The notes under the pieces are model-generated. The model saw only the letters and a program-made list of their open reading frames with translations, was not told where the DNA came from and ran no database searches. The position numbers were made by a program, and so were the translations under genes. Source: Synechococcus sp. A15-28 (lineage in GTDB: Bacteria; Cyanobacteriota; Cyanobacteriia; PCC-6307; Cyanobiaceae). Taken from it: a stretch of DNA of 32,000 nt. Shown here piece by piece: positions 16,246 through 31,043 of the stretch; within the stretch, counting starts at the first letter, position 1; every line of letters starts with the position of its first letter. The stretch covers positions 1,230,001-1,262,000 of the forward strand of contig NZ_CP047931.1 of NCBI RefSeq assembly GCF_014280175.1. The letters run 5' to 3'.

Positions 16246-16526
16246 TTCAGCTCCACCCCTTTGCCCCGGTAGAAGGCGAAGCGTTCACGGATTGATTCGG
16301 CGTCTGGCTTGGGGGTGTCGTAGGCCCAAACGGCGTTGCGGATCACCTGATCGCCAACCACCACATCCCAGTAGCGAGCCGTGCCTTTCCATCCACAGAC
16401 CGTGGTGTGATCGGACGCGCGGAAGAACTCCTCTGCCATAGCAGCGCGGGGGAAATAGGGGTTGCCATCCACCATCACGATGTCATCGCTGTCAGCCAGG
16501 ACCGTGCCGTTGAAGATCGCCTGCAT
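16242..16526 (-). CDS. DUF427 protein
   Basis: CGWKGTARYWDV and the overall 94-aa pattern match remembered DUF427. Confidence 0.8.
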   Translation of the reverse strand: MQAIFNGTVLADSDDIVMVDGNPYFPRAAMAEEFFRASDHTTVCGWKGTARYWDVVVGDQVIRNAVWAYDTPKPDAESIRERFAFYRGKGVELK

Positions 16527-16576
16527 GATCTGGCACCGTTCGTCGCTGGGCGCAGGCTAGAAAATCTGTCCCGGAA

Positions 16577-16792
16577 TCAGTTGTATTCACCAGGCGTCTC
16601 CTGCTTGGACACCGTCACCCGCCCCACCTTGTTGCCGGAGAACCGCAGCAATTCATCCCCGCTGAAGGAATAGCCCAGCCCGCCGGCAATCTTGGCGACA
16701 TCATCGGCTGTGGATGCCGCCAGCACTGACTGCTTCAGGGCCTCGTCGTCCTGCAGACGCAGCAGGAAGCCTTTCAGTTGATCGAGAGCCAT
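16577..16792 (-). CDS. Nif11-domain small protein (71 aa)
   Basis: Starting at the internal ATG 16792, MALDQLKGFLLRLQDDEALKQSVLAASTADDVAKIAGGLGYSFSGDELL is the Nif11 N-terminal domain pattern. A short tail follows (RFSGNKVGRVTVSKQETPGEYN). Confidence 0.7.
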   Translation of the reverse strand: MALDQLKGFLLRLQDDEALKQSVLAASTADDVAKIAGGLGYSFSGDELLRFSGNKVGRVTVSKQETPGEYN

Positions 16793-16832
16793 CGCCCGCC
16801 TCAGCGAAGGGCCGTGAACCGTAAACGACGAC

Positions 16833-17009
16833 TCAGGATGCGATCGACAGATCCGAACCGTCATCGATCTGCAAGTGAGTCGTCAGACAAGTGGTGACAC
16901 AGGTCTGGTCATGGATGTCGCAGGCGCTGATGCAGACGAAATACTCATCGTGGGCCTGCCACCGTTCGCCAATGGATTGGTGTTGATGTTCCTGCTTGAG
17001 TGAGTACAT
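16833..17009 (-). CDS. Small Cys-rich ORF (58 aa)
   Basis: Sub-threshold ORF MYSLKQEHQHQSIGERWQAHDEYFVCISACDIHDQTCVTTCLTTHLQIDDGSDLSIAS with 4 Cys. It lies directly upstream of the Nif11-like gene and is preceded by an AT-rich region (17010-17130). Confidence 0.4.
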   Translation of the reverse strand: MYSLKQEHQHQSIGERWQAHDEYFVCISACDIHDQTCVTTCLTTHLQIDDGSDLSIAS

Positions 17010-17187
17010 CTGAATTCTTGCGAGTGCGACACCTTTACGAGCAGCCTTGATGGCTAGTCAATAAAAACATTGCGGAGAATAAAATACTTAGGGAAATAAT
17101 CTCAGGAAGAAATACTTATCCGGATCGTGAACAAGCCTTGCCGCCGGTTGTCATCTGGGCGACAAACCACAAGAGTGAAACCAGCGC

Positions 17188-17361
17188 ATGGACGAGGTCA
17201 TGGAATTCAAAAGCCGCATCTTTGCCAACTCACAAGGTCAAACAATCGACGCCGTTGGCAACGGCCGCTACCTGGTCTGCCATCAGACCAGCTGCGTCAT
17301 GGTGAAAGGCTGGCGCCAGGCCCAGACTGCCTTGAAACGCCAGGAGTCACCGATGGCATGA
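17188..17361 (+). CDS. Possible small ORF (57 aa)
   Basis: MDEVMEFKSRIFANSQGQTIDAVGNGRYLVCHQTSCVMVKGWRQAQTALKRQESPMA. GC3 is high, and it looks more protein-like than the listed 17127..17510 ORF in another frame. Confidence 0.35.
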   Translation: MDEVMEFKSRIFANSQGQTIDAVGNGRYLVCHQTSCVMVKGWRQAQTALKRQESPMA

Positions 17362-17392
17362 AGCAGGGCGAGCCACCTCCGGACGTCTGGCC

Positions 17393-17593
17393 TCAGAGGG
17401 TCTGCCAGGTGCTGGTGAGCCACTGGGGGGCAACGCTCCACCAGACTGCGACAGCCACAAAAATGGCCATCAAGCCAATGAGGCTGGTGATCAGCGTTTC
17501 TTCGCGCTGAGCATCGGACGTGACTTTTCTGACTTTTCCCAAGGATCGATCGGTCTCTGCTGATGGTGTAGGTCGGCAGAAATCGATCGTCAT
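17393..17593 (-). CDS. Small C-terminally anchored membrane protein (66 aa)
   Basis: ATG at 17593, a charged N-terminal half, then the TM helix LITSLIGLMAIFVAVAVWWSVA. Confidence 0.4.
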   Translation of the reverse strand: MTIDFCRPTPSAETDRSLGKVRKVTSDAQREETLITSLIGLMAIFVAVAVWWSVAPQWLTSTWQTL

Positions 17594-17943
17594 CGGTGAA
17601 AACACCGACCGTTCAATAGACGCCGAAGACGTCAGAGGAAGTCGAAGTTGTCCTCATCATCCTCATCTTCATTGGACTGGATCCACAAAGCCGCCACAGG
17701 GAAGATCAAACATCTCGCAAGAAGAATTTCCATCAACCAGAAAAGCTTTGAACACTAAAAACCCAATTAACTGCTTCAAGGATGTCGGTCACAACCAACC
17801 CCTTAATCACTCAACATGGTTGCGGATGATTCAAACCCTTCCGATTAAGCAGATTCACTTAAACGGCCTGCAACGAATCATCCGATACGTTTTTATGATC
17901 GATCAAAACAGATGATTGAAATATTCATTCAACGCTTCAACCG

Positions 17944-18021
17944 ATGGAACTGATTGCACTGGCCATCATCGTTGGCATCAGCGGAGGCCTTGCCGCCCGC
18001 TTGACCCCACGCAAATGCTGA
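17944..18021 (+). CDS. Tiny hydrophobic ORF (25 aa)
   Basis: MELIALAIIVGISGGLAARLTPRKC is a single TM-like helix with a basic tail, at the edge of an AT-rich islet. Confidence 0.25.
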   Translation: MELIALAIIVGISGGLAARLTPRKC

Positions 18022-18024
18022 ACC

Positions 18025-18099
18025 ATGTACACCCTCACCGCTGCCCTTGTGACCGCTGGGTTTATCGGCTTGTTCAGTCCAATCATTGCCCTGTTCTGA
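18025..18099 (+). CDS. Tiny hydrophobic ORF (24 aa)
   Basis: MYTLTAALVTAGFIGLFSPIIALF starts 3 nt after the stop of the preceding tiny ORF. Confidence 0.25.
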   Translation: MYTLTAALVTAGFIGLFSPIIALF

Positions 18100-18124
18100 G
18101 TCATCCACATCCAGCAGAAGAGGC

Positions 18125-18544
18125 TTAGAACCGTCCTTGCACAAGACGAAAGTCCCAATCCGTGAATGGAGCTCGCAGCTTCACCAACTCCTGATACGCG
18201 GGGCTTTTGTAAAAATCGATGCCGTCCTGGAGGGTCTTGCCCTTGCAGGCAGTCACCACCGTCAAGGGACCTCCATCACCTTCCATCAGCAAGGTGTTGC
18301 GCTGGCGAACGAGATACTCACAGCCCCACTCCTCCATCAGGGCATCCACCTTTTCGATGTAGCCCTTCATGGCTGGTTCGGCCTTGGTGGTTCCAGTCAC
18401 AACTGCCATGCCGTAATTCTGCTGAGGCTTCGGGATCAGCACCCCGGCAATCAGCCCAATCGATCCGGCTGCGATGCCGACAACGGCCGTGAGGTTGAAA
18501 CGCATCGGATCAATCAGCAGTGTTCCGTCATCATCGCTGGCCAA
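18125..18544 (-). CDS. Membrane-anchored DUF1330-like protein
   Basis: The C-terminal part (YIEKVDALMEEWGCEYLVRQ...MEGDGG...YKSPAYQELVKLR) fits the remembered DUF1330 pattern. An N-terminal TM helix is AVVGIAAGSIGLIAGVLI. The track start is TTG at 18544, directly after the DoxX stop; an ATG is at 18505. Confidence 0.6.
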   Translation of the reverse strand: MASDDDGTLLIDPMRFNLTAVVGIAAGSIGLIAGVLIPKPQQNYGMAVVTGTTKAEPAMKGYIEKVDALMEEWGCEYLVRQRNTLLMEGDGGPLTVVTACKGKTLQDGIDFYKSPAYQELVKLRAPFTDWDFRLVQGRF

Positions 18545-18934
18545 TCACCGGTGCCGTAGCCAACGAAAGCTGGGCACTGCTCCTGCACTGGACCGAGTGA
18601 GCGCCAACAACAATGCACCAATCAGGGCCACGTTCATGAAGAAGCCGCTATCCACCGGAAACGTGTGAAAAAGCAGCGTGGTGGGCACGAGAAACACCAG
18701 CAGCAGCGACGCCCCGAGCCGGGTGTTCGTTCCAAAAACAAAAACAACCGATCCGAAGATCAAACAGGTGATGGCACTGGCCAGGAGACATCCAGCCAAG
18801 GGTTCGGCGATCCCTTTTGAAGCGATCACATCAACCGTTCCGCTGAAATCCGTCACTTTTCCGGGAACGGCTTTGACAAACAACGCAGCCATTAAAACTC
18901 GCCCGAGCCAATCGAGCAGGAGCTGAGAGGTCAT
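18545..18934 (-). CDS. DoxX-family membrane protein
   Basis: Four hydrophobic helices, about 129 aa and a DoxX-like pattern (GRVLMAALFV..GK). The ATG overlaps the upstream stop (ATGA at 18931-18934). Confidence 0.75.
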   Translation of the reverse strand: MTSQLLLDWLGRVLMAALFVKAVPGKVTDFSGTVDVIASKGIAEPLAGCLLASAITCLIFGSVVFVFGTNTRLGASLLLVFLVPTTLLFHTFPVDSGFFMNVALIGALLLALTRSSAGAVPSFRWLRHR

Positions 18935-19128
18935 GTCCAGTTTTTCCAGATAAAACGCTCATCCCAATCTCCCCTGACGGCCCGGATGAATGCATCCTCC
19001 GACTCATCGGTCATGAAGCAATACGCAATCACCTTGTTGTCGTCGTCTTTGATCGCCAGAACATCATCCGACGGCGGTGACGTGGCTGACGAGAAAATTT
19101 TGCCGTCTCTCAGGATGAAGCGATGCAT
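18931..19128 (-). CDS. Small hypothetical protein (65 aa), first gene of the DoxX operon
   Basis: ATG start, an acidic sequence, and translational coupling to the DoxX gene. Confidence 0.45.
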   Translation of the reverse strand: MHRFILRDGKIFSSATSPPSDDVLAIKDDDNKVIAYCFMTDESEDAFIRAVRGDWDERFIWKNWT

Positions 19129-19277
19129 CGTCTTCAGACGGGGATTTCTTCAACCTAGCCACGCAAATCCAACGTAAATGTGACGACTCAAACCAAAGCA
19201 TTCGTCATGGCGCCCTGTCAGAGCTGGACAACGTGATACTGGGGGACTAAGACAGAAATGTCGTCACCACGACGCAG

Positions 19278-19344
19278 CGTTCACTTCGCTTTCTGCGGAG
19301 CGCAGCTCGACTCAGGCCATGGAACGGGGGTCTGGGCTTGCTTC
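19278..19344 (+). promoter_or_regulatory. Structured leader RNA, copy 1 (glutamine-riboswitch-like, glnA RNA / Downstream-peptide family)
   Basis: CGUUC (19278-19282) pairs with GAACG in GGAACGGGG (19321-19329). The internal hairpin is CUUCGC/UUUCU/GCGGAG. The 44-nt 3' block is 40/44 identical to copy 2. It sits upstream of a short ORF. Confidence 0.6.
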
Positions 19345-19355
19345 CCTTGGATGCG

Positions 19356-19532
19356 ATGACAACAATGGTTTGGAACGGATCAGCTTTTGGCCCTCAGGAT
19401 CGTGAGGCCGCCAAACGTGAGGCGCTGGTACGGCGTCTTGAGTCAGCCTTAGCAGGTCCTGATGGGCAGCACTCGGCCCAGTACTGCGGCACGGCATACC
19501 TGCGCCGAAACGGCTTTTCGGCTCTGCGCTGA
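19356..19532 (+). CDS. Small ORF (58 aa) downstream of leader copy 1
   Basis: MTTMVWNGSAFGPQDREAAKREALVRRLESALAGPDGQHSAQYCGTAYLRRNGFSALR. The ATG is 27 nt after the conserved leader. It ends 14 nt before the selO start. Confidence 0.4.
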   Translation: MTTMVWNGSAFGPQDREAAKREALVRRLESALAGPDGQHSAQYCGTAYLRRNGFSALR

Positions 19533-19546
19533 CCGATCAGGCCGCA

Positions 19547-21268
19547 GTGATGCTTTCAATAGCATCAGCGGATCGCTGGTTCGACCCCATGCCCACCGTC
19601 GCGCACAGTTTTGAGGACTTCAGCCAGCGGATCGACTACTCACTGCTGAAAGCGCTGAAGCCTGATCCTGAAGCCACAGCGGACGGCAATGACCACCGCC
19701 CCAGGCCGGTGTTCTCAGGCCACTGGGTGCCGGTGAAGCCCACACCCATTCCGGATCCGAAATACGTCGCCCACAGCTTCCGTTTGTTCGCGGAACTTGG
19801 TCTCAGCGATGACCTCGCCCACAACGCCGACTTCACCCGGCTCTTCTCCGGTGATGCATCGGTGGCAACCGACCCGATGCACCCGTGGGGGTGGGCCACC
19901 GGCTATGCCCTGTCGATCTACGGCACGGAATACATCCAGCAGTGCCCCTTCGGCACCGGCAACGGCTACGGCGACGGCCGGGCGATGTCGATCGTTGAGG
20001 GGGTTTTTGAGGGCCAGCGCTGGGAGATGCAACTGAAGGGCGGCGGCCCGACCCCCTACTGCCGTGGGGCCGATGGCCGGGCCGTACTCCGCTCCAGCGT
20101 GCGCGAATTTCTGGCCCAGGAGTTCATGCATGCCCTCGGCGTTCCCACCTCCCGTTCACTGGCGCTGTATCGCTCCGAAGCCGAAACGGTGCGACGCCCC
20201 TGGTACTCGGACCAGTCACGCTCCTTTGATCCCGACGTGATGGTCGACAACCAGGCCGCCATCAGCACTCGGGTGGCGCCGTCGTTTCTGCGGGTGGGGC
20301 AGATCGAGCTGTTCGCACGCCGCGCACGCGACAACGCCCATCCCGATGCCCAGGAGGAACTGCGGCTGATAGTGCAGCACCTGATCGACCGCAACTACCG
20401 CACCGAGATTGACGCCGCCCTGCCCTTCCATCAGCAGGTGCTGGAGCTGGCGCGTCTGTTCCGCAGTCGACTCACGGCCCTGGTCGCCAACTGGATGCGC
20501 GTCGGCTACTGCCAGGGCAACTTCAACAGCGACAACTGCGCAGCCGGCGGTTACACCCTCGACTACGGCCCCTTCGGCTTCTGCGAATTGTTCGACCCCC
20601 GCTTCCAACCCTGGACCGGTGGTGGGGCCCACTTCTCCTTCTTCAATCAGCCGACAGCAGCGGAGGCCAACTACCGGATGTTCTGGCGATCCCTGCGCAC
20701 TCTGCTGGAGGGGGATGACGCAGCCCAGCGCGAGCTCGATCTACTCAACGAAGGGTTTGCAGTGGCCATGCAGCAGCAACTGGAGGCGATGTGGGCCAGC
20801 AAGCTGGCACTCCCCGCCTACGACGAAGCCCTGGTGACCGAGCTGTTGCAGCTGTTGGTGGCCGCCAAGGCCGACTACATCAAGGCCTTCCGCCTGCTCT
20901 CGGCCATTCCCGAGCGGGTCGCCGAGTTGCACGCGAGTTTCTACCTGCCCTGTTCCGAAGACCTGGATCAACGCTGGCAGACCTGGCTGCAACGCTGGCG
21001 CGAGCGGATCACCGCCAACGGCAACCTGGAGGAGACGTCTGCGGCCATGCGGCGCGTCAACCCCGCCATCACCTGGCGGGAATGGCTGATCGCCCCCGCC
21101 TATCAACAGGCGGAGCTGGGCGACAACAGCCTGGTGCTGGAACTGCAGACCCTGTTCAGCAACCCCTACAGCGACCCCTCCCCTGAACTGGCGGCCCGCT
21201 ACGACCAACTCAGGCCGCAGCAGTTCTTCAGCGCCGGCGGCATCTCTCACTACAGCTGTTCGTCCTGA
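19547..21268 (+). CDS. selO: Protein adenylyltransferase SelO (YdiU/UPF0061)
   Basis: Collinear with remembered E. coli SelO: GDGRA, LKGGGPTPY..GDGRAVLRSSVREFL..E.MH.LG+PT+R, RVAPS.LR.G, N.DN, LDYGPFGF and the C-terminal SCSS. The start is GTG 19547 or ATG 19550. Confidence 0.92.
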   Translation: MMLSIASADRWFDPMPTVAHSFEDFSQRIDYSLLKALKPDPEATADGNDHRPRPVFSGHWVPVKPTPIPDPKYVAHSFRLFAELGLSDDLAHNADFTRLFSGDASVATDPMHPWGWATGYALSIYGTEYIQQCPFGTGNGYGDGRAMSIVEGVFEGQRWEMQLKGGGPTPYCRGADGRAVLRSSVREFLAQEFMHALGVPTSRSLALYRSEAETVRRPWYSDQSRSFDPDVMVDNQAAISTRVAPSFLRVGQIELFARRARDNAHPDAQEELRLIVQHLIDRNYRTEIDAALPFHQQVLELARLFRSRLTALVANWMRVGYCQGNFNSDNCAAGGYTLDYGPFGFCELFDPRFQPWTGGGAHFSFFNQPTAAEANYRMFWRSLRTLLEGDDAAQRELDLLNEGFAVAMQQQLEAMWASKLALPAYDEALVTELLQLLVAAKADYIKAFRLLSAIPERVAELHASFYLPCSEDLDQRWQTWLQRWRERITANGNLEETSAAMRRVNPAITWREWLIAPAYQQAELGDNSLVLELQTLFSNPYSDPSPELAARYDQLRPQQFFSAGGISHYSCSS

Positions 21269-23740: not shown

Positions 23741-24985
23741 ATGACGGCCGCAGCCTTGCCCAACACAGGTGCGGTGACAGGCCTTGGCGAGACACTGGCC
23801 TTTTTTCGCGATCCATCCTTCAGCCAGCGCCGCTTCAGTGAGCTGGGAGACGTGTTCGAAACCAAGCTGCTGGCCCAGAGCATCGTGTTCATCCGCGGCG
23901 AACGCGCCATCGGAGACCTCCTGAAGCAGGAAGACTCCCTTCAAGGCTGGTGGCCGGACAGCGTGCGGCAGCTGCTGGGGAGCAAGTCTCTCGCCAACCG
24001 CAGCGGTGCGGACCACAAAGCGCGTCGCCGCGTGGTGGGACAGCTGTTCTCCAGTGCTGCCCTCAGCCGTTACACCCCACAGATCGAAGCCCTGGTCGAC
24101 GACCTTGCTGATGAGCTGCAGCACACTGATGGGCCGGTTCCCCTGGCAGCGCGGATGCGCCGCTTCGCCTTCTCGGTGATCGCCACAACGGTGTTGGGGT
24201 TGGACAACGCAAACCGCGACGCCCTGTTCACCGATTTCGAGATCTGGACGCGCGCCCTGTTTTCAATCCCCCTCGCCCTGCCAGGGACGCCCTTCGCCCG
24301 CGCCCTTGCCGCTCGGCAACGCCTCCTGGCACGACTGAAGACCGTGCTGCAGACCAGCAACGTCGAAAGGAAAGGTGGCCTTGATCTGCTCAGCGGCGGA
24401 CTGGATGAAGCGGGACTCCCGCTTGATGACGACGATCTTGTTGAACAACTGCTGCTGCTGCTCTTCGCCGGCTACGAAACCACCGCATCCTCATTGAGCT
24501 GCCTGTTCCGGGCGCTGCTGCTGAACCCGGAGGTGGAGCACTGGCTGATGCAGGATCTGAACAGCCACGAACGTCCGTCAAGGCTGGATGCCACCGTCCT
24601 GGAAGTGATGCGGATGACTCCGCCGGTGGGCGGCTTCTTCCGGAGAAACACCCAGTCGATCGAGCTGGCGGATGTGGCGATTCCCCAGGGACGCGTAATT
24701 CAGGTGGTGCTGAGCTCCTCGAGTGCGACGGACCAGACCGACCTGGAGGCCTTCCGGCCGCAGCGTCATCTGGATGGTTCGTTCCAGCAGACCCTGCTGC
24801 CCTTCGGTGGGGGTGAACGGGTGTGCCTGGGGAAAGCCTTGGCGGAACTGGAGATCCGGCTGATGGCGACGGGGCTGCTGCAACGCGTTCAGTTGCAACT
24901 GGAGCCCGATCAGGATCTCAGCCTTCAGTTGATTCCAAGCCCGACGCCTCGCGATGGACTTCTGGTGACGGCAACAGCCCGTTGA
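23741..24985 (+). CDS. Cytochrome P450
   Basis: Heme-binding loop FGGGERVCLG, I-helix AGYETTA, and ExxR (EVMR). Confidence 0.9.
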   Translation: MTAAALPNTGAVTGLGETLAFFRDPSFSQRRFSELGDVFETKLLAQSIVFIRGERAIGDLLKQEDSLQGWWPDSVRQLLGSKSLANRSGADHKARRRVVGQLFSSAALSRYTPQIEALVDDLADELQHTDGPVPLAARMRRFAFSVIATTVLGLDNANRDALFTDFEIWTRALFSIPLALPGTPFARALAARQRLLARLKTVLQTSNVERKGGLDLLSGGLDEAGLPLDDDDLVEQLLLLLFAGYETTASSLSCLFRALLLNPEVEHWLMQDLNSHERPSRLDATVLEVMRMTPPVGGFFRRNTQSIELADVAIPQGRVIQVVLSSSSATDQTDLEAFRPQRHLDGSFQQTLLPFGGGERVCLGKALAELEIRLMATGLLQRVQLQLEPDQDLSLQLIPSPTPRDGLLVTATAR

Positions 24986-24995
24986 ACCGAAGTGT

Positions 24996-25148
24996 TCACT
25001 CCTTCCTGGACGGCTTGATCCATTCACCGGTCTTCACGGAGACCACAGCGAAACTCCCCACAAACACAAGCGCAAACACCACCAGTACGGCCGCGGTGAG
25101 GTTGCTGATCTCCAGCTCACCGAGCATGAAGGCCAATGGTTCAGGCAT
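24996..25148 (-). CDS. Possible small single-TM protein (50 aa)
   Basis: Sub-threshold ORF MPEPLAFMLGELEISNLTAAVLVVFALVFVGSFAVVSVKTGEWIKPSRKE, convergent with the P450 gene. Confidence 0.35.
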   Translation of the reverse strand: MPEPLAFMLGELEISNLTAAVLVVFALVFVGSFAVVSVKTGEWIKPSRKE

Positions 25149-25172
25149 CGCAACCTCGACGGAAGCGAGAGC

Positions 25173-25424
25173 CTAAAGCTGCGGTGTGATCGCGTCGTTG
25201 GGGAAGAACTCCTCAAACACACAGATGCGATCTGCCCAGCGCATCTCCACTTCAAAACGCATGAGGCGCTGACGGACCCACATCAAGGTGTCGACATCAA
25301 TGGGTTTGTGGACCTTCAGCTTCTGGGCTCTGACCCAGTCGTCCTTGTTCTGAGGGGGGTTCATCTCATCAACCAATCGTTCCCATAACGTAAGGATGTT
25401 GCTCAACGGCGCCGTCAACGTCAT
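25173..25424 (-). CDS. Hypothetical protein (83 aa)
   Basis: ATG start and a plausible sequence. No family was recognised. Confidence 0.45.
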   Translation of the reverse strand: MTLTAPLSNILTLWERLVDEMNPPQNKDDWVRAQKLKVHKPIDVDTLMWVRQRLMRFEVEMRWADRICVFEEFFPNDAITPQL

Positions 25425-25837
25425 CTTCCGTAAGCATCAAGCGACACAGAATTCGGCCAGAAGTGTTCGTCTGATCATCATCTTCAGAGAATCTTTGAGT
25501 CCACAGCCCCGAGCGATGGCCGTCGAAACCTCCATTTCGTCGCCATTGCAGCAGTCCAGGGGGTGCACGGAGGAGGAAATTGTTGAAAACACGCCCTCAC
25601 AACCATGCCGTTAACACCATTAACAGCCATATCGAACGATAAAAAAACAAAACCTGCTCTTCTCCCACGCCCTCTTCGTCCGGATGCAGATCGTCCGACA
25701 GGACAACGCATCGAGACCAGCTGGATGGAACTCCGCCAGGACTATTCAGGGCTTGGTTGAGGCCATTTCCACGCCAAAATCGTGTTGTGTAGCGGCACGA
25801 ACGACACAGCCGAAGACAGAGCCTGTAGAACTGTGAT

Positions 25838-25851
25838 GTAGCAACTGCTAC
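25838..25851. promoter_or_regulatory. Perfect GTA-N8-TAC palindrome (NtcA-type site)
   Basis: GTAGCAACTGCTAC, extended as TGTAGCA-AC-TGCTACA, ends 7 nt before leader copy 2. Confidence 0.45.
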
Positions 25852-25858
25852 AGCATCA

Positions 25859-25925
25859 CGTTCACCTCACCTCCGGTGAGGCGCAGTTCGACTCAGGCCA
25901 TGGAACGGGGACCTGAGCTTGCTTC
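25859..25925 (+). promoter_or_regulatory. Structured leader RNA, copy 2 (glutamine-riboswitch-like)
   Basis: CGUUC (25859-25863) pairs with GAACG in GGAACGGGG (25902-25910). The hairpin is CCUCACC/UCC/GGUGAGG. CUCAGG pairs with CCUGAG around the conserved CCAUGGAACGGGG. It lies directly upstream of a DUF4278-type peptide gene. Confidence 0.65.
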
Positions 25926-25937
25926 GAGGAACCCATC

Positions 25938-26042
25938 ATGACCCTGACCTATCGCGGCCAGAAGTACGTGCAGAACAACGCTGCTGCCCAAAACAGCAAG
26001 CGTTCTGTTTTGGTGTATCGCGGTCACAAAGTGGCTCAGTAA
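25938..26042 (+). CDS. DUF4278-type short peptide (34 aa)
   Basis: MTLTYRGQKYVQNNAAAQNSKRSVLVYRGHKVAQ has two YRGxK(Y/V) repeats, as remembered for DUF4278. It is absent from the ORF track (<60 aa) and is followed by an intrinsic terminator. Confidence 0.7.
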   Translation: MTLTYRGQKYVQNNAAAQNSKRSVLVYRGHKVAQ

Positions 26043-26068
26043 GCCCCATCGTTGATGTGGCTGACTTT

Positions 26069-26093
26069 CCCCGCCTTGGCGGGGCTTTTTTTT
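26069..26093 (+). terminator. Rho-independent terminator
   Basis: CCCCGCC-TT-GGCGGGG stem followed by C and T8, 27 nt after the DUF4278 stop. Confidence 0.7.
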
Positions 26094-26097
26094 GCCC

Positions 26098-26346
26098 TCA
26101 GCCAACGGTTAATTCACCATCAACGCCGTACTGATGTAGACACTGCTTCACCGTGAGCACCGACAGGGTGCTGCCTGTGTCGGCATCGAACAACACGTAG
26201 GGACAGCCCCGAACAACACAGCGACGGCGCGCATCCACGTAGGCATTAAACAGGGTCTGGTGGGAACATTCCTCCACCCAGCCGCTGCTGCTCAAATAGC
26301 GCGTCAGGATCATGCGCCCCTCACAGATGCTTCCGTGATGGCCCAT
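26098..26346 (-). CDS. Hypothetical Cys-containing protein (71-82 aa)
   Basis: ATG at 26346 or 26313. No family was recognised. Confidence 0.4.
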   Translation of the reverse strand: MGHHGSICEGRMILTRYLSSSGWVEECSHQTLFNAYVDARRRCVVRGCPYVLFDADTGSTLSVLTVKQCLHQYGVDGELTVG

Positions 26347-26476
26347 GCATCGGTGAGATCGCCGAAGTTACCTGAACTCTTCGGGATCAGAGCCGCCTGA
26401 TGGGTACCCCCTGTTGTTCAGCACAACCAACCAGCGCTTGAAGATCGCGTTAGGAGGGGGCGTCGACCCAATCGGA

Positions 26477-26662
26477 ATGCCACTGTTCGTCTGTGCCGGC
26501 TGCAGCATGCGCATCGAGCGCTCGATGGCCACTTATCTGCGCATGAAAGGCCGCGTGCTGTGCTCCACCTGTCTGGACCGCATGGAGGCTGAACAGACGG
26601 ATGGCAAAGACAGAAACGAACCAGGCCCCTCGAAGCCGACTCGAACCTCACCGATCAGTTGA
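26477..26662 (+). CDS. Small zinc-ribbon-like protein (61 aa)
   Basis: From the internal ATG 26477: MPLFVCAGCSMRIERSMATYLRMKGRVLCSTCLDRMEAEQ..., with CxxC...CxxC. Confidence 0.45.
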   Translation: MPLFVCAGCSMRIERSMATYLRMKGRVLCSTCLDRMEAEQTDGKDRNEPGPSKPTRTSPIS

Positions 26663-26731
26663 TGGCGACATTTCGTAGCTGATCACACCACATGAGTTGC
26701 CGCTGCAACGGACAGTGGGCTTGCGGAGAAA

Positions 26732-26820
26732 CCTAGGGTTCCGGTTCCGTCAGGGATGACTGGTCCGAGAGGTTTCGGTCGGTTCTGCCGACTGCACGGA
26801 GGGACAAAAGCCCGGGAGAC
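26732..26820 (+). promoter_or_regulatory. Guanidine-I (ykkC) riboswitch aptamer
   Basis: CTAGGGTTCCGG (26733-26744), GGTCCGAGAG (26762-26771) and ACGGAGGGACAAAAGCCCGGGAGA (26796-26819) occur in the order of the remembered ykkC consensus, 25 nt upstream of the hydrolase ATG. Confidence 0.85.
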
Positions 26821-26844
26821 CGCATCCACCCCATCTCCCCTCCG

Positions 26845-28035
26845 ATGTCCTCCCCCTCAGACCCCACTGGGGCCTTCCAGCGATCGCACCCCAGCGAGGG
26901 TTTCGCTGCGCTCGAAAAAGAACGGAAACTCCCGCTCACCGGCTGGCAACAGGAAGTTGATCAGGCCAAGCGTTTTGGCCTCGAAGCAGCCGAGAGCATC
27001 GTGGACCGCAACATCTCCACGTTTTCGCGAGGCGAATTGCCTCACTTTGCAGGAATCAACACTTTCATGAAGGCTCCCTACCTGGAGGATGTCACCCAGG
27101 TGGGGAACTACGACGTCGCCATCATCGGAGTACCCCACGATTGTGGGACGACGTACCGACCAGGCACCCGATTCGGCCCCCAGGGCATCCGCAGGATTTC
27201 TGCGCTGTACACCCCGTACAACTACGAGATGGGAGTGGACCTGCGTGAACAGATCACCCTGTGCGATGTCGGAGACATCTTCACGATTCCAGCCAACAAC
27301 GAGAAGAGTTTCGATCAGATCTCCAAGGGCATCGCCCACGTCTTCGCCAGCGGCGCCTTCCCGATCATTCTCGGCGGCGACCACTCCATCGGCTTCCCCA
27401 CTGTTCGTGGTGTTTGCCGCCATCTCGGTGACAAGAAAGTGGGCATCATCCACTTCGATCGACATGTCGACACCCAGGAGATCGACCTGGATGAACGCAT
27501 GCACACCTGTCCGTGGTTCCACGCCACCAACATGGCGAATGCCCCAGCTGAAAACCTGGTGCAGCTCGGCATCGGTGGTTGGCAAGTTCCCAGGGAAGGG
27601 GTGAAGGTTTGCCGTGAACGCGGCACCAACGTTCTCACAGTCACCGACATCACCGAGATGGGCCTGGAGGCGGCTGCTCAGTACGCCATAGAACGGGCCA
27701 CGGATGGTACTGACTGCGTCTACATCTCCTTTGATATCGACTGCATCGATGCCGGCTTTGTGCCGGGTACCGGTTGGCCCGAACCGGGCGGCCTGCTGCC
27801 GCGAGAAGCCCTCAAGCTGCTCGAGTTGATTGTCCGCAATATCCCGGTCTGTGGGCTCGAGATCGTTGAGGTGTCGCCTCCGTATGACATTAGTGACATG
27901 ACCTCATTGATGGCCACCCGCGTGATCTGCGATGCCATGGCTCACCTCGTGGTCAGCGGCCAGCTGCCCCGAAAGGGCACGCCGGCCTGGATCAGCGATG
28001 TCTGCAACATGAACGTCGATCAGAAGTGGAGGTAA
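26845..28035 (+). CDS. gdmH: Arginase-fold ureohydrolase, GdmH-like guanidine hydrolase (automated labels would say agmatinase/SpeB)
   Basis: Metal-ligand motifs GGDHSI, FDRHVD and SFDIDCIDAGFVPGTG. The length is about 396 aa with an N-terminal extension, as in Sll1077. It follows a guanidine riboswitch and precedes HypA/HypB-like genes. Confidence 0.8.
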   Translation: MSSPSDPTGAFQRSHPSEGFAALEKERKLPLTGWQQEVDQAKRFGLEAAESIVDRNISTFSRGELPHFAGINTFMKAPYLEDVTQVGNYDVAIIGVPHDCGTTYRPGTRFGPQGIRRISALYTPYNYEMGVDLREQITLCDVGDIFTIPANNEKSFDQISKGIAHVFASGAFPIILGGDHSIGFPTVRGVCRHLGDKKVGIIHFDRHVDTQEIDLDERMHTCPWFHATNMANAPAENLVQLGIGGWQVPREGVKVCRERGTNVLTVTDITEMGLEAAAQYAIERATDGTDCVYISFDIDCIDAGFVPGTGWPEPGGLLPREALKLLELIVRNIPVCGLEIVEVSPPYDISDMTSLMATRVICDAMAHLVVSGQLPRKGTPAWISDVCNMNVDQKWR

Positions 28036-28038
28036 GCC

Positions 28039-28437
28039 ATGCACGAAGTCGACATGACCAAATGTCTACAGATCTCCCTCAATGAGTGGCGGGAACGTCG
28101 GGATGATCCCAGCGCAATGGTGGAAGTCATTCATCTCGATGTGGGGCGTTTCACCTGCGTGGAGCCCGATCAGCTGGTGACCACGTACAACGCCGCTGTC
28201 CAGGGCACCTGGCTGGATGGCTCCCGACTCACCATCACAGACATCCCCTTCGTTGGGTGCTGTGTGCTCTGCAAAAGCAGTTATTCCCCAACTCCGGAGA
28301 ACGCCTACCGATCCCCCTGCTGTGATCACCCCCTTGAAGACATTCTCAGCGGCAGGGAACTGAGGATCCGCAGCATCGATTACCGCAGTGATCCAGGTGC
28401 TGCTCTTGAGTCCACCTCAATCCAGCGTTCGCGCTGA
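28039..28437 (+). CDS. ghaA: HypA-like nickel metallochaperone (GhaA-like)
   Basis: N-terminal MHE nickel-binding motif, and Cys cluster CCVLC-x15-CCDH in place of the usual two CxxC pairs. It starts 3 nt after the hydrolase stop. Confidence 0.75.
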
Positions 28438-28456
28438 AACCCATAACGACATAACC

Positions 28457-29176
28457 ATGCACATGCCCCTCGAGGACACCCTCGGTCTCAACCTTCTCGC
28501 CGCCAACCAACACCAGGCGGAGCACAACCAGGAGCACTTTGAGTGTTGGAACCTGCTCTGCCTCAATCTGATGAGCAGTCCTGGAGCCGGTAAGACGGCC
28601 CTGCTGGAACGCTCCCTTCCCGTCCTGACAGCGCAGCACAAGATGGCTGTCTTGGAGGGAGACATGACCACCCAGCTCGACGCTGAGCGGCTTGAGGCCG
28701 TCGGCATTCCGGTGGTGCCCATCACCACCGGTCGGGCGTGCCATCTCGATGCCTCCATGGTGAGCGGTGGGCTCACATTGCTGAAACAGCGACTGGATCC
28801 CGCCCAGCTCGATCTGCTGCTGGTGGAGAACGTCGGAAACCTCGTTTGTCCCGCCGAATTTGATGTTGGCGAACACCACAAGGTGGCCCTGCTCAGCGTC
28901 ACCGAAGGCGACGACAAACCACTTAAATACCCGCTGATGTTCCGTCAGGCCGATGTGGTGCTGATCACCAAGGTCGATCTGCTTCCCCACCTGCCTGTGG
29001 AGCTGGGGGCGATCCGCCGCAACATCCTCAGCATCAATCCCAACGCCACGGTGATCGAGGTCTCCGCCATCAGCGGCGAAGGGCTCGAGACCTGGCACCA
29101 GTGGGTGCGACAGGCCATTGCCGAGCGCACCACTGGAGCTTCAGCCATTCAGTCCCCCGCTCTGGCTACCGCCTGA
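28457..29176 (+). CDS. ghaB: HypB-like nickel GTPase (GhaB-like)
   Basis: P-loop SSPGAGKT, the CH metal motif (GRACHLDA), ENVGNLVCP and TKVDL. The ATG at 28457 is preferred over the track start at 28388, which overlaps the ghaA-like gene. Confidence 0.85.
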
Positions 29177-29214
29177 GCACAGTCCCTCTCCTCCTTCCCC
29201 ATCACGCCAATGCC

Positions 29215-30216
29215 ATGACCAAACAACTCCGCAATCTCCTGATCGCCGGCCTGGCGGTCGTTCTGGCCGTTGCCTGTTCCAAACCCTCAACGCCAGCGGT
29301 GGGCGGGACTCCGATCGTGCTCGGCTACAGCAACTGGGCCGGCTGGTGGCCATGGGCCATCGCCGTGGAAGAGAAGCTGTTCGAAAAGAACGGCGTGAAC
29401 GTTGAAATGAAATGGTTCGACGGCTACGTGCAGTCGATGGAAACCTTTGCTGCCGGCAAGATCGACGGCAATTCCCAAACACTCAACGACACCATCTCCT
29501 TCCTGCCTGGTGAGAACGGTGGCGAGGTTGTAGTGCTGGTCAACGACAATTCCGCCGGCAACGATCAGATCATTGCCGATGCCTCGATCACATCCGTCGC
29601 CGAACTAAAAGGCAAGACGGTGGCTGTGGAAGAAGGAGTCGTCGACGACTATCTGCTCAGCCTTGCCCTGAAGGATGTCGGCCTCAGCCGTGAGGATGTA
29701 GTGATCAAGGGCATGCCCACAGACCAGGCCGCCACGGCTTTCGCAGCCGGTCAGGTGGATGCTGTCGGCGCCTTCCCTCCTTACACCGGCACTGCTATGC
29801 AGCGAGAGGGTGCTCGGGTGATTGCCAGCTCCAAGGAGTATCCAGGCGCCATCCCTGATCTGCTCACTGTCAGTGGTGATTTGATCAAGGAACGGCCCGA
29901 CGACGTTCAAAAGATCGTCAAAACCTGGTGGGATGTGCGCGACTACATGGAGAAGAACCCCGAGAAATCGGAGGCGATCATGGCCAAGAGAGCTGGCATC
30001 CCCACAGAGGAATACGAGCAGTACAAGGACGGAACCCGTTTTTTCTCGATCAAGGAGAACCTGGAAGCTTTCAGCGATGGCGAGGGAATGCAATTCATGC
30101 CTTACGCCTCGGAATCCATGGCTGACTTCATGGTGTCGGTCGGATTCATTCCCGAGAAACCGGACATGAGCAACCTGTTCGATTCCAGCTTCATCAAGAA
30201 GGTCGCTGACTCCTGA
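29215..30216 (+). CDS. ABC transporter substrate-binding lipoprotein (NitT/TauT, NMT1-like)
   Basis: From ATG 29215: MTKQLRNLLIAGLAVVLAVAC (lipobox), then an NMT1/THI5-like SBP pattern (GYSNWAGWWPW). Confidence 0.82.
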   Translation: MTKQLRNLLIAGLAVVLAVACSKPSTPAVGGTPIVLGYSNWAGWWPWAIAVEEKLFEKNGVNVEMKWFDGYVQSMETFAAGKIDGNSQTLNDTISFLPGENGGEVVVLVNDNSAGNDQIIADASITSVAELKGKTVAVEEGVVDDYLLSLALKDVGLSREDVVIKGMPTDQAATAFAAGQVDAVGAFPPYTGTAMQREGARVIASSKEYPGAIPDLLTVSGDLIKERPDDVQKIVKTWWDVRDYMEKNPEKSEAIMAKRAGIPTEEYEQYKDGTRFFSIKENLEAFSDGEGMQFMPYASESMADFMVSVGFIPEKPDMSNLFDSSFIKKVADS

Positions 30217-31043
30217 TGACTGTCACGGCCGCCGCTGCCCACAAGGGGAAGAGCGCAGGGCTCCTCTCTCTGGTCACCCTGGGGGCCACCCCGTCGGGAA
30301 CCGTGCGCGGCGGCCTGCAGGTCGCCTCCCTGCTTCTTCCCCTGCTGGCCTGGGCTGCTATCGCCTCACTTGGGCTGGTGGATGAGAAATTTCTGCCGTC
30401 TCCAGCGGCTGTTTTCAAGTCCCTGGCCTCCATGGCCGAAAGCGGCATCCTGTTTCAGGACATCGTCGCCAGCACCGGACGCGTCTTCGCCGGATTCCTT
30501 CTGGCCACGGTGCTGGCCGTACCGATCGGTATCTGCATGGGGGTTTACCCGGCGATCTGCGCTCTCTGTGAGCCTCTGATCGCCATGCTGCGCTACATGC
30601 CGGCAGCCGCGTTCATCCCCCTGCTGATCATCTACCTCGGCATTGGTGAAGAACCCAAGATCGCGTTGATCTTTCTTGGCACGATCTATTTCAACATCCT
30701 GATGGTGATGGATGCGGTGAAATTCGTTCCCAAGGAACTCATCGAAACCACCCTGACACTCGGCGGCCGCAGCAGTCAGGTTCTGGTGCAGGTTGTGGCG
30801 CGTTACAGCTTGCCGAGCATCATCGACACCCTGCGCATCAACATCGCCACGTCCTGGAATCTCGTGGTGGTGGCTGAGCTTGTGGCAGCCGAAGTGGGTC
30901 TGGGCAAACGCATTCAATTGGCCCAGCGTTTCTTCCGCACGGATCAGATCTTTGCCGAGCTGATCGTGCTTGGGCTGATCGGGTTCGCTATCGACATGGG
31001 CTTCCGACTGTTGCTTCGTCTCAGCTGTCGTTGGGCGGTCTGA
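30216..31043 (+). CDS. ABC transporter permease (NitT/TauT family)
   Basis: About six TM helices and a BPD-type permease pattern. The ATG overlaps the SBP stop (TGATG at 30214-30218). Confidence 0.86.
   Translation: MTVTAAAAHKGKSAGLLSLVTLGATPSGTVRGGLQVASLLLPLLAWAAIASLGLVDEKFLPSPAAVFKSLASMAESGILFQDIVASTGRVFAGFLLATVLAVPIGICMGVYPAICALCEPLIAMLRYMPAAAFIPLLIIYLGIGEEPKIALIFLGTIYFNILMVMDAVKFVPKELIETTLTLGGRSSQVLVQVVARYSLPSIIDTLRINIATSWNLVVVAELVAAEVGLGKRIQLAQRFFRTDQIFAELIVLGLIGFAIDMGFRLLLRLSCRWAV

Follow-up and report, generated by a model that had tools for sequence, protein, structure and literature searches.

The 32,000-nucleotide (nt) stretch of the Synechococcus sp. A15-28 genome analysed here (contig NZ_CP047931.1, positions 1,230,001 to 1,262,000; hereafter the window) carries two similar segments, 19278–19344 (copy 1) and 25859–25925 (copy 2), which the original prediction described as paralogous structured leaders resembling glutamine riboswitches. 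What are these two RNAs, and how would they act on the genes that follow them? Both segments are of an already known kind: they are ordinary members of the glutamine-II riboswitch class, with nothing new in kind. We are highly confident that they represent glutamine-II aptamers in the 5' leaders of two genes encoding small IF17-like proteins of marine Synechococcus. Family membership, conservation of the structure, the gene context and the NtcA box upstream are results of the present analysis.

Scanning the whole window against Rfam 15 with cmscan gave three matches above the gathering score, two of which fall on these segments. Copy 1 matches RF01704 (Glutamine-II, formerly Downstream-peptide) at 19275–19336 with 60.4 bits (E = 2e-12) and copy 2 at 25856–25917 with 72.2 bits (E = 8e-16); the gathering score of the family is 33, and both copies cover model positions 1–60 of 60. 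At these E-values, given for the 32-kb window, the element lies far beyond chance. A permissive Infernal scan (E ≤ 1) returned no match to RF01739 (glnA, glutamine-I) in the window and no family other than RF01704 at the two aptamer sites. Membership of the glutamine-I class was rejected on this result and on the fold, which is a two-hairpin pseudoknot. The original prediction had offered glnA and Downstream-peptide together, and it is the latter that holds; its failure to see an ACGGAAG-type element fits the type II class. The ACGGAAG element belongs to the E-loop of glnA (type I).

Compared directly, the two segments agree at 55 of 67 positions. As originally described, they share a 5' CGTTCAC, a variable hairpin and a 44-nt block starting with CGCAG (19301–19344 and 25882–25925) that is identical at 40 of 44 positions. 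The 20-nt windows flanking the segments on each side agree at only 1–6 of 20 positions, so the similarity is confined to the element. The parts of the two aptamers, with P1 and P2 denoting the two hairpins, are as follows.

19275–19336, plus strand: copy 1 aptamer (RF01704 match, pairing checked)
19278–19282, 19284–19300 and 19301–19310, plus strand: copy 1 pseudoknot 5' strand, P1 and linker CGCAGCUCGA
19311–19318 and 19328–19336, plus strand: copy 1 P2 5' strand and P2 3' strand, the latter with bulged G 19330
19322–19326, plus strand: copy 1 pseudoknot 3' strand GAACG in the P2 loop, followed by G 19327
25856–25917, plus strand: copy 2 aptamer (full-model RF01704 match)
25859–25863, 25865–25881 and 25882–25891, plus strand: copy 2 pseudoknot 5' strand, P1 and linker
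25892–25899 and 25909–25917, plus strand: copy 2 P2 5' strand and P2 3' strand, the latter with bulged A 25911
25903–25907, plus strand: copy 2 pseudoknot 3' strand GAACG in the P2 loop, followed by G 25908

P1, between the 5' CGUUCA and the CGCAG linker, is the variable hairpin, and it does differ in sequence while pairing in both copies: CUUCGC (19284–19289) pairs with GCGGAG (19295–19300) over 6 base pairs (bp), one of them U.G, in copy 1, and CCUCACC (25865–25871) with GGUGAGG (25875–25881) over 7 bp in copy 2. P2 has 8 bp in both copies, a single bulged purine in its 3' strand and a 9-nt loop, AUGGAACGG. The four differences within the 44-nt block comprise one in the linker (19306 C versus 25887 U), one at the bulged nucleotide of P2 (19330 G versus 25911 A) and two in the P2 3' strand (19331 U versus 25912 C; 19335 G versus 25916 A). 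The last two turn a G-C and a U-A pair into G.U and U.G wobbles in copy 1, as had been proposed. The complementarity of CGUUC and GAACG (19278–19282 with 19322–19326; 25859–25863 with 25903–25907) had been thought to close the fold; the pairing stands, but it forms a pseudoknot into the P2 loop. It is accompanied by a long-range C:G pair from the linker (19303 with 19327; 25884 with 25908).

This arrangement is that of the crystallised aptamer, whose pseudoknot helix consists of C1-G2-U3-U4-C5 and, from the P2 loop, G36-A37-A38-C39-G40, and is extended by a long-range C19:G41 pair and flanked by A33:G42 (PMC6698751). Glutamine lies in the plane of C1:G40, stacked between G18 and C19 and hydrogen-bonded to C1, G18, C39 and G40, and a metal ion is held via G18, A37 and A38 (PMC6698751). 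In the crystal numbering, C1–C5 correspond to 19278–19282 in copy 1 and 25859–25863 in copy 2, C17-G18-C19 to 19301–19303 and 25882–25884, A33 to 19319 and 25900, and G36–G41 to 19322–19327 and 25903–25908. All of the binding-site nucleotides (C1, G2, G18, C19, A33, A37, A38, C39, G40, G41 and G42) are present in both copies.

Relatives were sought by scanning one genome per species with the conserved-core pattern CGCAGNTNGANNCANGNCATGGAACGGG, which yielded at least 120 loci, nearly all from marine Synechococcus, Parasynechococcus, Vulcanococcus or Prochlorococcus. The 5' CGUUC lies outside this search pattern, and it was correctly placed upstream in 111 of the 112 usable core matches listed. 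The single exception, a Desulfatibacillum metagenome-assembled genome (MAG; L003), has neither CGUUC nor hairpins and is a chance match. A MAG labelled Salipiger bermudensis (L028) carries a complete Synechococcus-type cassette together with other Synechococcus-like DNA, and its contig is probably mis-binned. The same pattern found a single match among 2.9 million viral contigs, and an origin of the element in phage was rejected on this ground.

From the listed matches, 90 distinct aptamers were aligned (alignment A2) and pairs were counted against the Rfam structure plus the pseudoknot. Standard pairs occupy 96.4% of the pair cells, compared with 24–57% when the 3' partners are slid by 1–3 columns, and changes on both sides of a pair occur in 166 cells, compared with a shuffle mean of 53. 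Compensatory changes affect all six P1 pairs and three P2 pairs; 94.7% of P1 cells and 95% of P2 cells are paired, the latter rising to 100%, again with compensatory changes, in the copy-2-type subset. The binding-site nucleotides are invariant. So are the pseudoknot columns, partly by construction, which makes covariation there uninformative. Together, the pair-cell and compensatory-change counts indicate that the aptamer structure, as judged from these alignments, is real and under selection. The original claim of covariation thus holds for P1 and for the wider family; the P2 differences between the two copies are changes from Watson-Crick to wobble pairs and not fully compensatory. Its further expectations of conserved pairing in homologous leaders, a marine cyanobacterial context and a short downstream open reading frame (ORF) were borne out, by the compensatory changes in the 90 related loci, by relatives that are almost all marine Synechococcus or Prochlorococcus, and by the two ORFs described below.

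Linker C 19306 and bulged G 19330, at which copy 1 departs from copy 2, look like lineage signatures, since both are shared by its five orthologues from other genomes (L022, L054, L085, L095 and L108). The two copies are old paralogues and not a recent duplicate: copy 1 belongs to a rarer sub-lineage, and copy 2 is canonical, with close relatives that carry the same cassette.

The class resides in the 5' leaders of short ORFs (17–100 amino acids, aa), usually DUF4278/IF17-like, and both copies fit this description. The downstream features are as follows.

25938–26042, plus strand: copy 2 ORF, 34 aa, MTLTYRGQKYVQNNAAAQNSKRSVLVYRGHKVAQ, DUF4278, IF17-like
26069–26093, plus strand: copy 2 intrinsic terminator, CCCCGCCTTGGCGGGG followed by a T-run (terminator scan)
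19356–19532, plus strand: copy 1 ORF, 58 aa, MTTMVWNGSAF...AQYCGTAYLRRNGFSALR, putative divergent IF17-like small protein

Among the matches listed, the ORFs fall into three classes. In 92 loci the N-terminus reads M(T/S)L(T/I)YRGxxY and the peptide is DUF4278-like, ten loci encode MNALQLLKERE...KYRGVTYE proteins, and six, copy 1 included, encode 58-aa MT(S/T)xxWNGSAF...Y(R/C)GxxYLR(Q/R)NGF proteins. The copy 2 peptide matches Pfam PF14105 (DUF4278) with 31.3 bits against a cut-off of 25.3, near-identical peptides lie 3' of the aptamer in dozens of Synechococcus loci, and the cassette as a whole, including its GCUUGCUUCGAGGAAC spacer, is the common Synechococcus type. The loci with MNALQLLKERE... 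proteins (L012, L014, L029, L031, L062, L065, L074, L082, L111 and L115) make up a third cassette type, whose aptamer has no bulged A and in most cases has G rather than C at position seven of P2; its ORFs are of 68–69 aa and end in KYRGVTYEAMRANWL. When two members were compared with DUF4278, one gave a weak match (E = 0.022) and the other none.

Copy 2 is predicted to give a monocistronic transcript of about 250 nt, terminated at 26069–26093. A short transcript of this kind with a strong terminator might act mainly in trans as a small RNA, with the ORF incidental, and the homologous Prochlorococcus RNA was indeed first catalogued as the non-coding Yfr6 (PMC2864571, PMC6212724). We regard this as exceedingly improbable: the MTLTYRGQKY...YRG peptide is conserved over dozens of loci while the DNA varies, it has the Pfam match given above, and a GFP fusion is translated from the MED4 leader.

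The copy 1 ORF has the same length as its five orthologues and is 48–55% identical to them. The differences number 34–37 at third codon positions compared with 17–22 at positions 1 and 2, and this third-position bias is a coding signature. A profile-profile comparison (hhalign) of the copy-1-type ORFs with the YRG peptides gave a probability of 48.5% (E = 1.8e-4), with LYWNGSAF lying opposite LTYRGQKY and the C-terminal KYRGxxY opposite the second of the YRG repeats; such kinship is suggestive and not proof. The C-terminal Y[R/C]GxxY motif is conserved in the copy-1-type ORFs. High-light Prochlorococcus peptides normally have YCG in their second repeat, so the YCG of copy 1 is no sign of decay. 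The copy-1-type ORF (WNGSAF...YRGxxYLRQNGF) may be an unannotated branch of riboswitch-controlled IF17-like proteins. Exact-sequence look-ups of both peptides and of the SelO protein encoded 3' of copy 1 gave no match. For the 34-aa peptide this is because a close relative's peptide differs from it by one residue; GTG or TTG first codons not being read as methionine may also have contributed to the misses.

Upstream, among the matches listed, a perfect NtcA box (GTA-N8-TAC) lies 17–22 nt 5' of CGUUC in 76 of 111 loci. The family consensus is TAnAAnnnnTnTGTAGCAAnnGCTACnnAA-CGUUC, and a -10-like hexamer with the consensus TAnAAn is found 12 nt 5' of the box. The corresponding features in the window are listed here.

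25826–25831, plus strand: copy 2 putative -10-like hexamer TAGAAC, fitting TAnAAn, 12 nt 5' of the NtcA box
25838–25851, plus strand: copy 2 perfect NtcA box GTAGCAACTGCTAC (GTA-N8-TAC; pattern scan)
19248–19253, plus strand: copy 1 putative -10-like hexamer TAAGAC, at the TAnAAn position, 12 nt 5' of the dyad box
19260–19273, plus strand: copy 1 dyad box GTCGTCACCACGAC, degenerate NtcA-type (GT-N10-AC), at offset -18 from CGUUC

The copy 2 box, 7 nt 5' of the aptamer and at the family-conserved offset, is the only perfect GTA-N8-TAC in the window (0.28 expected). The box of copy 1 is offset from CGUUC by -18, as are the perfect GTAGCCACCGCTAC boxes of its five orthologues, which read TAGAAG, TATGAA or TAGGAA at the hexamer site. 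Relative to the orthologues' GTAGC-CACC-GCTAC, the copy 1 box (GTCGT-CACC-ACGAC) is changed by two pairs of symmetrically placed substitutions, so that the dyad is preserved. These symmetric changes would fit selection on dyad symmetry better than decay, and the dyad would be either an altered operator or a 5'-terminal RNA hairpin. A scan for the sigma-70 consensus found no full promoter at either copy. With a -10-like hexamer 12 nt upstream, the transcription start probably falls at or within the NtcA box, and the copy 1 dyad box probably overlaps the start in the same way. NtcA would then repress the gene under nitrogen limitation, so that the peptide would be made only when nitrogen and glutamine are plentiful. 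In Prochlorococcus MED4 the NtcA site overlaps the transcription start and has been read as repressing (PMC6212724); the family promoter layout agrees with this.

How, then, would glutamine act on the downstream gene? A terminator scan found none between the aptamer and the ORF in either copy, and the AUGs lie 20–21 nt 3' of P2, so control is most likely translational. By analogy with published members of the class, from which glutamine binding, ON polarity and the link to IF17 are taken, the element most likely switches translation ON in response to glutamine. Members of the class bind glutamine selectively over its analogues (as summarised in PMC6698751), and the class is tied to DUF4278 genes (PMC6212724). 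With the MED4 leader fused translationally to GFP and transcribed from a constitutive promoter, expression rose after ammonium addition (PMC6212724), and Huang et al. proposed that ligand-stabilised pseudoknot formation competes with a structure occluding the ribosome-binding site (PMC6698751).

Leader folding was examined with RNAfold ensembles in which the pseudoknot strands were free or masked; the unpaired probability of the region from the Shine-Dalgarno (SD) sequence to the AUG was compared between the two, with 200 downstream shuffles as a control. The features of the two initiation regions are as follows.

25912–25929, plus strand: copy 2 predicted SD-sequestering hairpin (OFF state; RNAfold ensemble)
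19336–19355, plus strand: copy 1 spacer and initiation region, with the GCUUGCUUC tail common with copy 2 and a weak SD-like GGA at 19349–19351

In copy 2 the mean unpaired probability of the SD-AUG region rises from 0.26 unconstrained to 0.70 with the pseudoknot masked, a shift reached by 0 of 200 shuffles. The predicted OFF hairpin pairs CCUGAG (25912–25917) with UUC (25923–25925) and AGG (25927–25929), which places the 3' part of the SD sequence GAGG (25926–25929) inside the hairpin, and further pairing is predicted between the loop CAUGG plus GGG and CCC...UCAUG around the start codon. Over the 39 copy-2-type Synechococcus loci (the GAGGAAC class) the shift averages +0.19; in the other classes it is about zero, and no single expression-platform model was found to serve all classes. 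In copy 1 a local hairpin is predicted at 19339–19357. Its orthologues have a predicted pairing of linker with SD (CGCAGCUC with GAGCUGUG) that copy 1 does not have.

A decoy model, in which the 5' CGUUC would pair with a copy of GGAAC near the start in the absence of ligand, was also considered, with GAGGAAC at the ribosome-binding site of copy 2 and UGGAACGG in codons 6–8 of copy 1 as candidate sites. It was rejected as a general model, because in the folding ensembles of every class the 5' strand contributes only 0.05–1.2 paired nucleotides of the SD-AUG window. The UGGAACGG of copy 1 is moreover largely dictated by the conserved W-N-G codons.

We thus propose the following for copy 2. Binding of glutamine would lock P1, the pseudoknot and P2 into one coaxial stack, the pseudoknot helix of 5' CGUUC and P2-loop GAACG being capped by the pair that the second C of the CGCAG linker makes with the G following GAACG. 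The P2 3' strand CCUGAG would be kept within the aptamer and could then not pair with the UUC-G-AGG segment that holds the ribosome-binding site, and the 34-aa DUF4278 peptide would be translated more strongly, making copy 2 a glutamine-activated translational ON switch. We infer the OFF-state hairpin, where transcription starts and what the peptide does; the peptide is presumed to damp glutamine synthetase as IF17 does. At the level of the aptamer, copy 1 would work in the same way.

The switches might instead act on transcription, by attenuation or Rho-dependent termination, or on mRNA stability. The folding of copy 1 shows no shift, comparative support for the copy 2 hairpin is weak and the 5'-terminal dyad could serve as a stability element. 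We nevertheless consider this very unlikely, as neither copy has a terminator-like hairpin with a T-run between aptamer and start, a gap of 20–21 nt from aptamer to AUG leaves no room for one, and the MED4 translational fusion responded under a constitutive promoter (PMC6212724).

Several points weigh against glutamine-activated translational control of two IF17-like genes. What is claimed for these two RNAs draws on their sequence and on published members of the class. The OFF-state hairpin of copy 2 is a model derived from this same sequence, and in a comparative test 83.8% of its cells were paired compared with 83.5% in shuffles, with four double-change cells; in the same alignment every cell of P2 is paired (100%) and covariation is clear. 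According to in-line probing cited in PMC6698751, RNAs comprising only the aptamer form P2 in the absence of ligand. The IF17-like peptides of marine picocyanobacteria do not have the C-terminal region of IF17 (PMC6212724), and their inhibition of glutamine synthetase is presumed by analogy. As for copy 1, its ORF has no Pfam match, its P2 contains two wobble pairs, its NtcA-type box departs from the GTA/TAC consensus, and masking its pseudoknot produced no gain in accessibility (0.42 to 0.39; 177 of 200 shuffles were as good).

These features of copy 1 raise the possibility that it is a decaying, non-functional paralogue, a relic aptamer and ORF, and that only copy 2 works; its lower Rfam score (60.4 versus 72.2 bits), the YCG in place of the YRG motif and its position in a strain-variable islet (see below) point the same way. 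We consider such decay unlikely. The binding-site nucleotides of copy 1 are all intact and all of its P1 and P2 positions still pair. Its ORF is intact, of exactly 58 aa like the orthologues, and has diverged with a third-position bias; YCG is a normal second repeat in the high-light Prochlorococcus peptides; and the symmetric change of the dyad box suggests selection rather than decay. Function of both copies, each with its own small protein gene, remains our preferred reading.

The copy 1 ORF is followed by a SelO gene (19550–21268; Pfam SelO). The stop codon of the ORF (19530–19532) and the likely SelO start (ATG 19550 or GTG 19547) are 15–18 nt apart, and the terminator scan detected none between the two genes, so co-transcription is possible in this strain. 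Read-through could make expression of SelO, a protein AMPylase, dependent on glutamine and NtcA. Taken jointly with an unannotated branch of copy-1-type proteins, this is highly improbable; it would offer a loose parallel to the glutamine-controlled adenylylation of glutamine synthetase in proteobacteria. That adenylylation is carried out by GlnE. A conserved functional link between copy 1 and SelO was rejected: SelO was near none of the five orthologous cassettes, and an aptamer lay upstream in just 1 of the 63 metagenomic SelO loci with enough upstream sequence (93% identity).

In a locus whose SelO is 99% identical (L125), the upstream gene is unrelated and homology breaks at about 19556. 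In L129–L131 and L181 (SelO at 81–82% nucleotide identity), a match to about 16250–17345 is joined almost directly to SelO. Because the upstream regions differ and homology resumes at about 19556 in all five loci, the stretch from about 17345 to 19555 appears to be a strain-variable islet with the copy 1 cassette at its right-hand edge. The copy 2 cassette of promoter, riboswitch, ORF and terminator (about 25447–26111) is likewise absent between conserved flanks in the metagenomic contigs L130 and L131 (5073–5721), which suggests, from these alignments, that riboswitch-plus-peptide units are gained and lost as small modules between close strains. A contig of assembly GCA_045559925.1 matches the region 23846–31035 at 99.3% identity and has its genes in the same order.

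Farther downstream on the plus strand, cmscan placed a Guanidine-I riboswitch (RF00442) at 26722–26820 (86.6 bits; gathering score 63). An arginase-family ORF (26845–28035) follows it directly, then come a HypA-like ORF (28039–28437) and a HypB/CobW-like ORF (28388–29176), and in the near-identical contig L121 an NMT1-type ABC transporter is next in line. The region 26722–29176 resembles a locus for the guanidine hydrolase GdmH and its nickel-insertion partners controlled by a guanidine riboswitch, an arrangement described for cyanobacteria (PMC12704784). Inside the HypB-like ORF, on the opposite strand, a partial-model match to psaA RNA (RF01752) at 29075–29146 (22.3 bits; gathering score 50; E = 0.24) is most likely due to chance.

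Beyond correct annotation, the significance of these findings is small. As by-products, they point to a rarer type of downstream ORF that Pfam misses and that keeps the YRG motif, provide a model of the OFF state in the common Synechococcus type, with the P2 3' strand as the anti-ribosome-binding-site sequence, and add evidence that riboswitch-plus-peptide cassettes come and go as small units between close strains. The symmetric variant of the NtcA box is a further annotation-level detail.

The motif entered the literature as 'Downstream-peptide' (PMC2864571) and subsequently received the name type 2, or glutamine-II, riboswitch (PMC6212724; PMC6698751). After its description in 2010, glutamine binding was demonstrated in 2011, action as an ON switch in 2018 and the three-dimensional structure in 2019; marine Synechococcus genomes are known to hold up to nine copies. 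Its best-known examples are the leader of Yfr6 / WP_071812974 in Prochlorococcus MED4 (Klahn et al. 2018) and the crystallised aptamer (Huang et al. 2019). Both copies resemble these in the succession of pseudoknot 5' strand, P1, CGCAG linker and P2 with the pseudoknot 3' strand in its loop and a bulged purine, as well as in their conserved nucleotides, host group, distance of about 20 nt to a short ORF with the YRG motif, and putative NtcA box at the predicted transcription start. Copy 1 departs from the typical member in having C for U at linker position 6, G for A at the bulge and an ORF type outside Pfam.

The glutamine-I riboswitch (RF01739), found upstream of gifB/IF17 in Synechocystis, binds the same ligand in a virtually identical pocket (PMC6698751) and shares the CGUUC...GAACG helix, ON polarity, a DUF4278/IF17 class of regulated gene and NtcA co-regulation. 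Type 1, however, folds as a three-way junction that has an E-loop and lacks a pseudoknot, and the two types are reported to be mutually exclusive between genomes (PMC6212724). The SAM-II/SAM-V, preQ1 and guanidine-III riboswitches likewise bind their ligand in a pseudoknot major-groove triplex near the ribosome-binding site (PMC6698751). They differ in ligand and in sequence family. Several of these H-type pseudoknot classes turn expression OFF by burying the ribosome-binding site within the pseudoknot, whereas in the glutamine-II elements described here that site is outside the aptamer and the switch would turn translation on.

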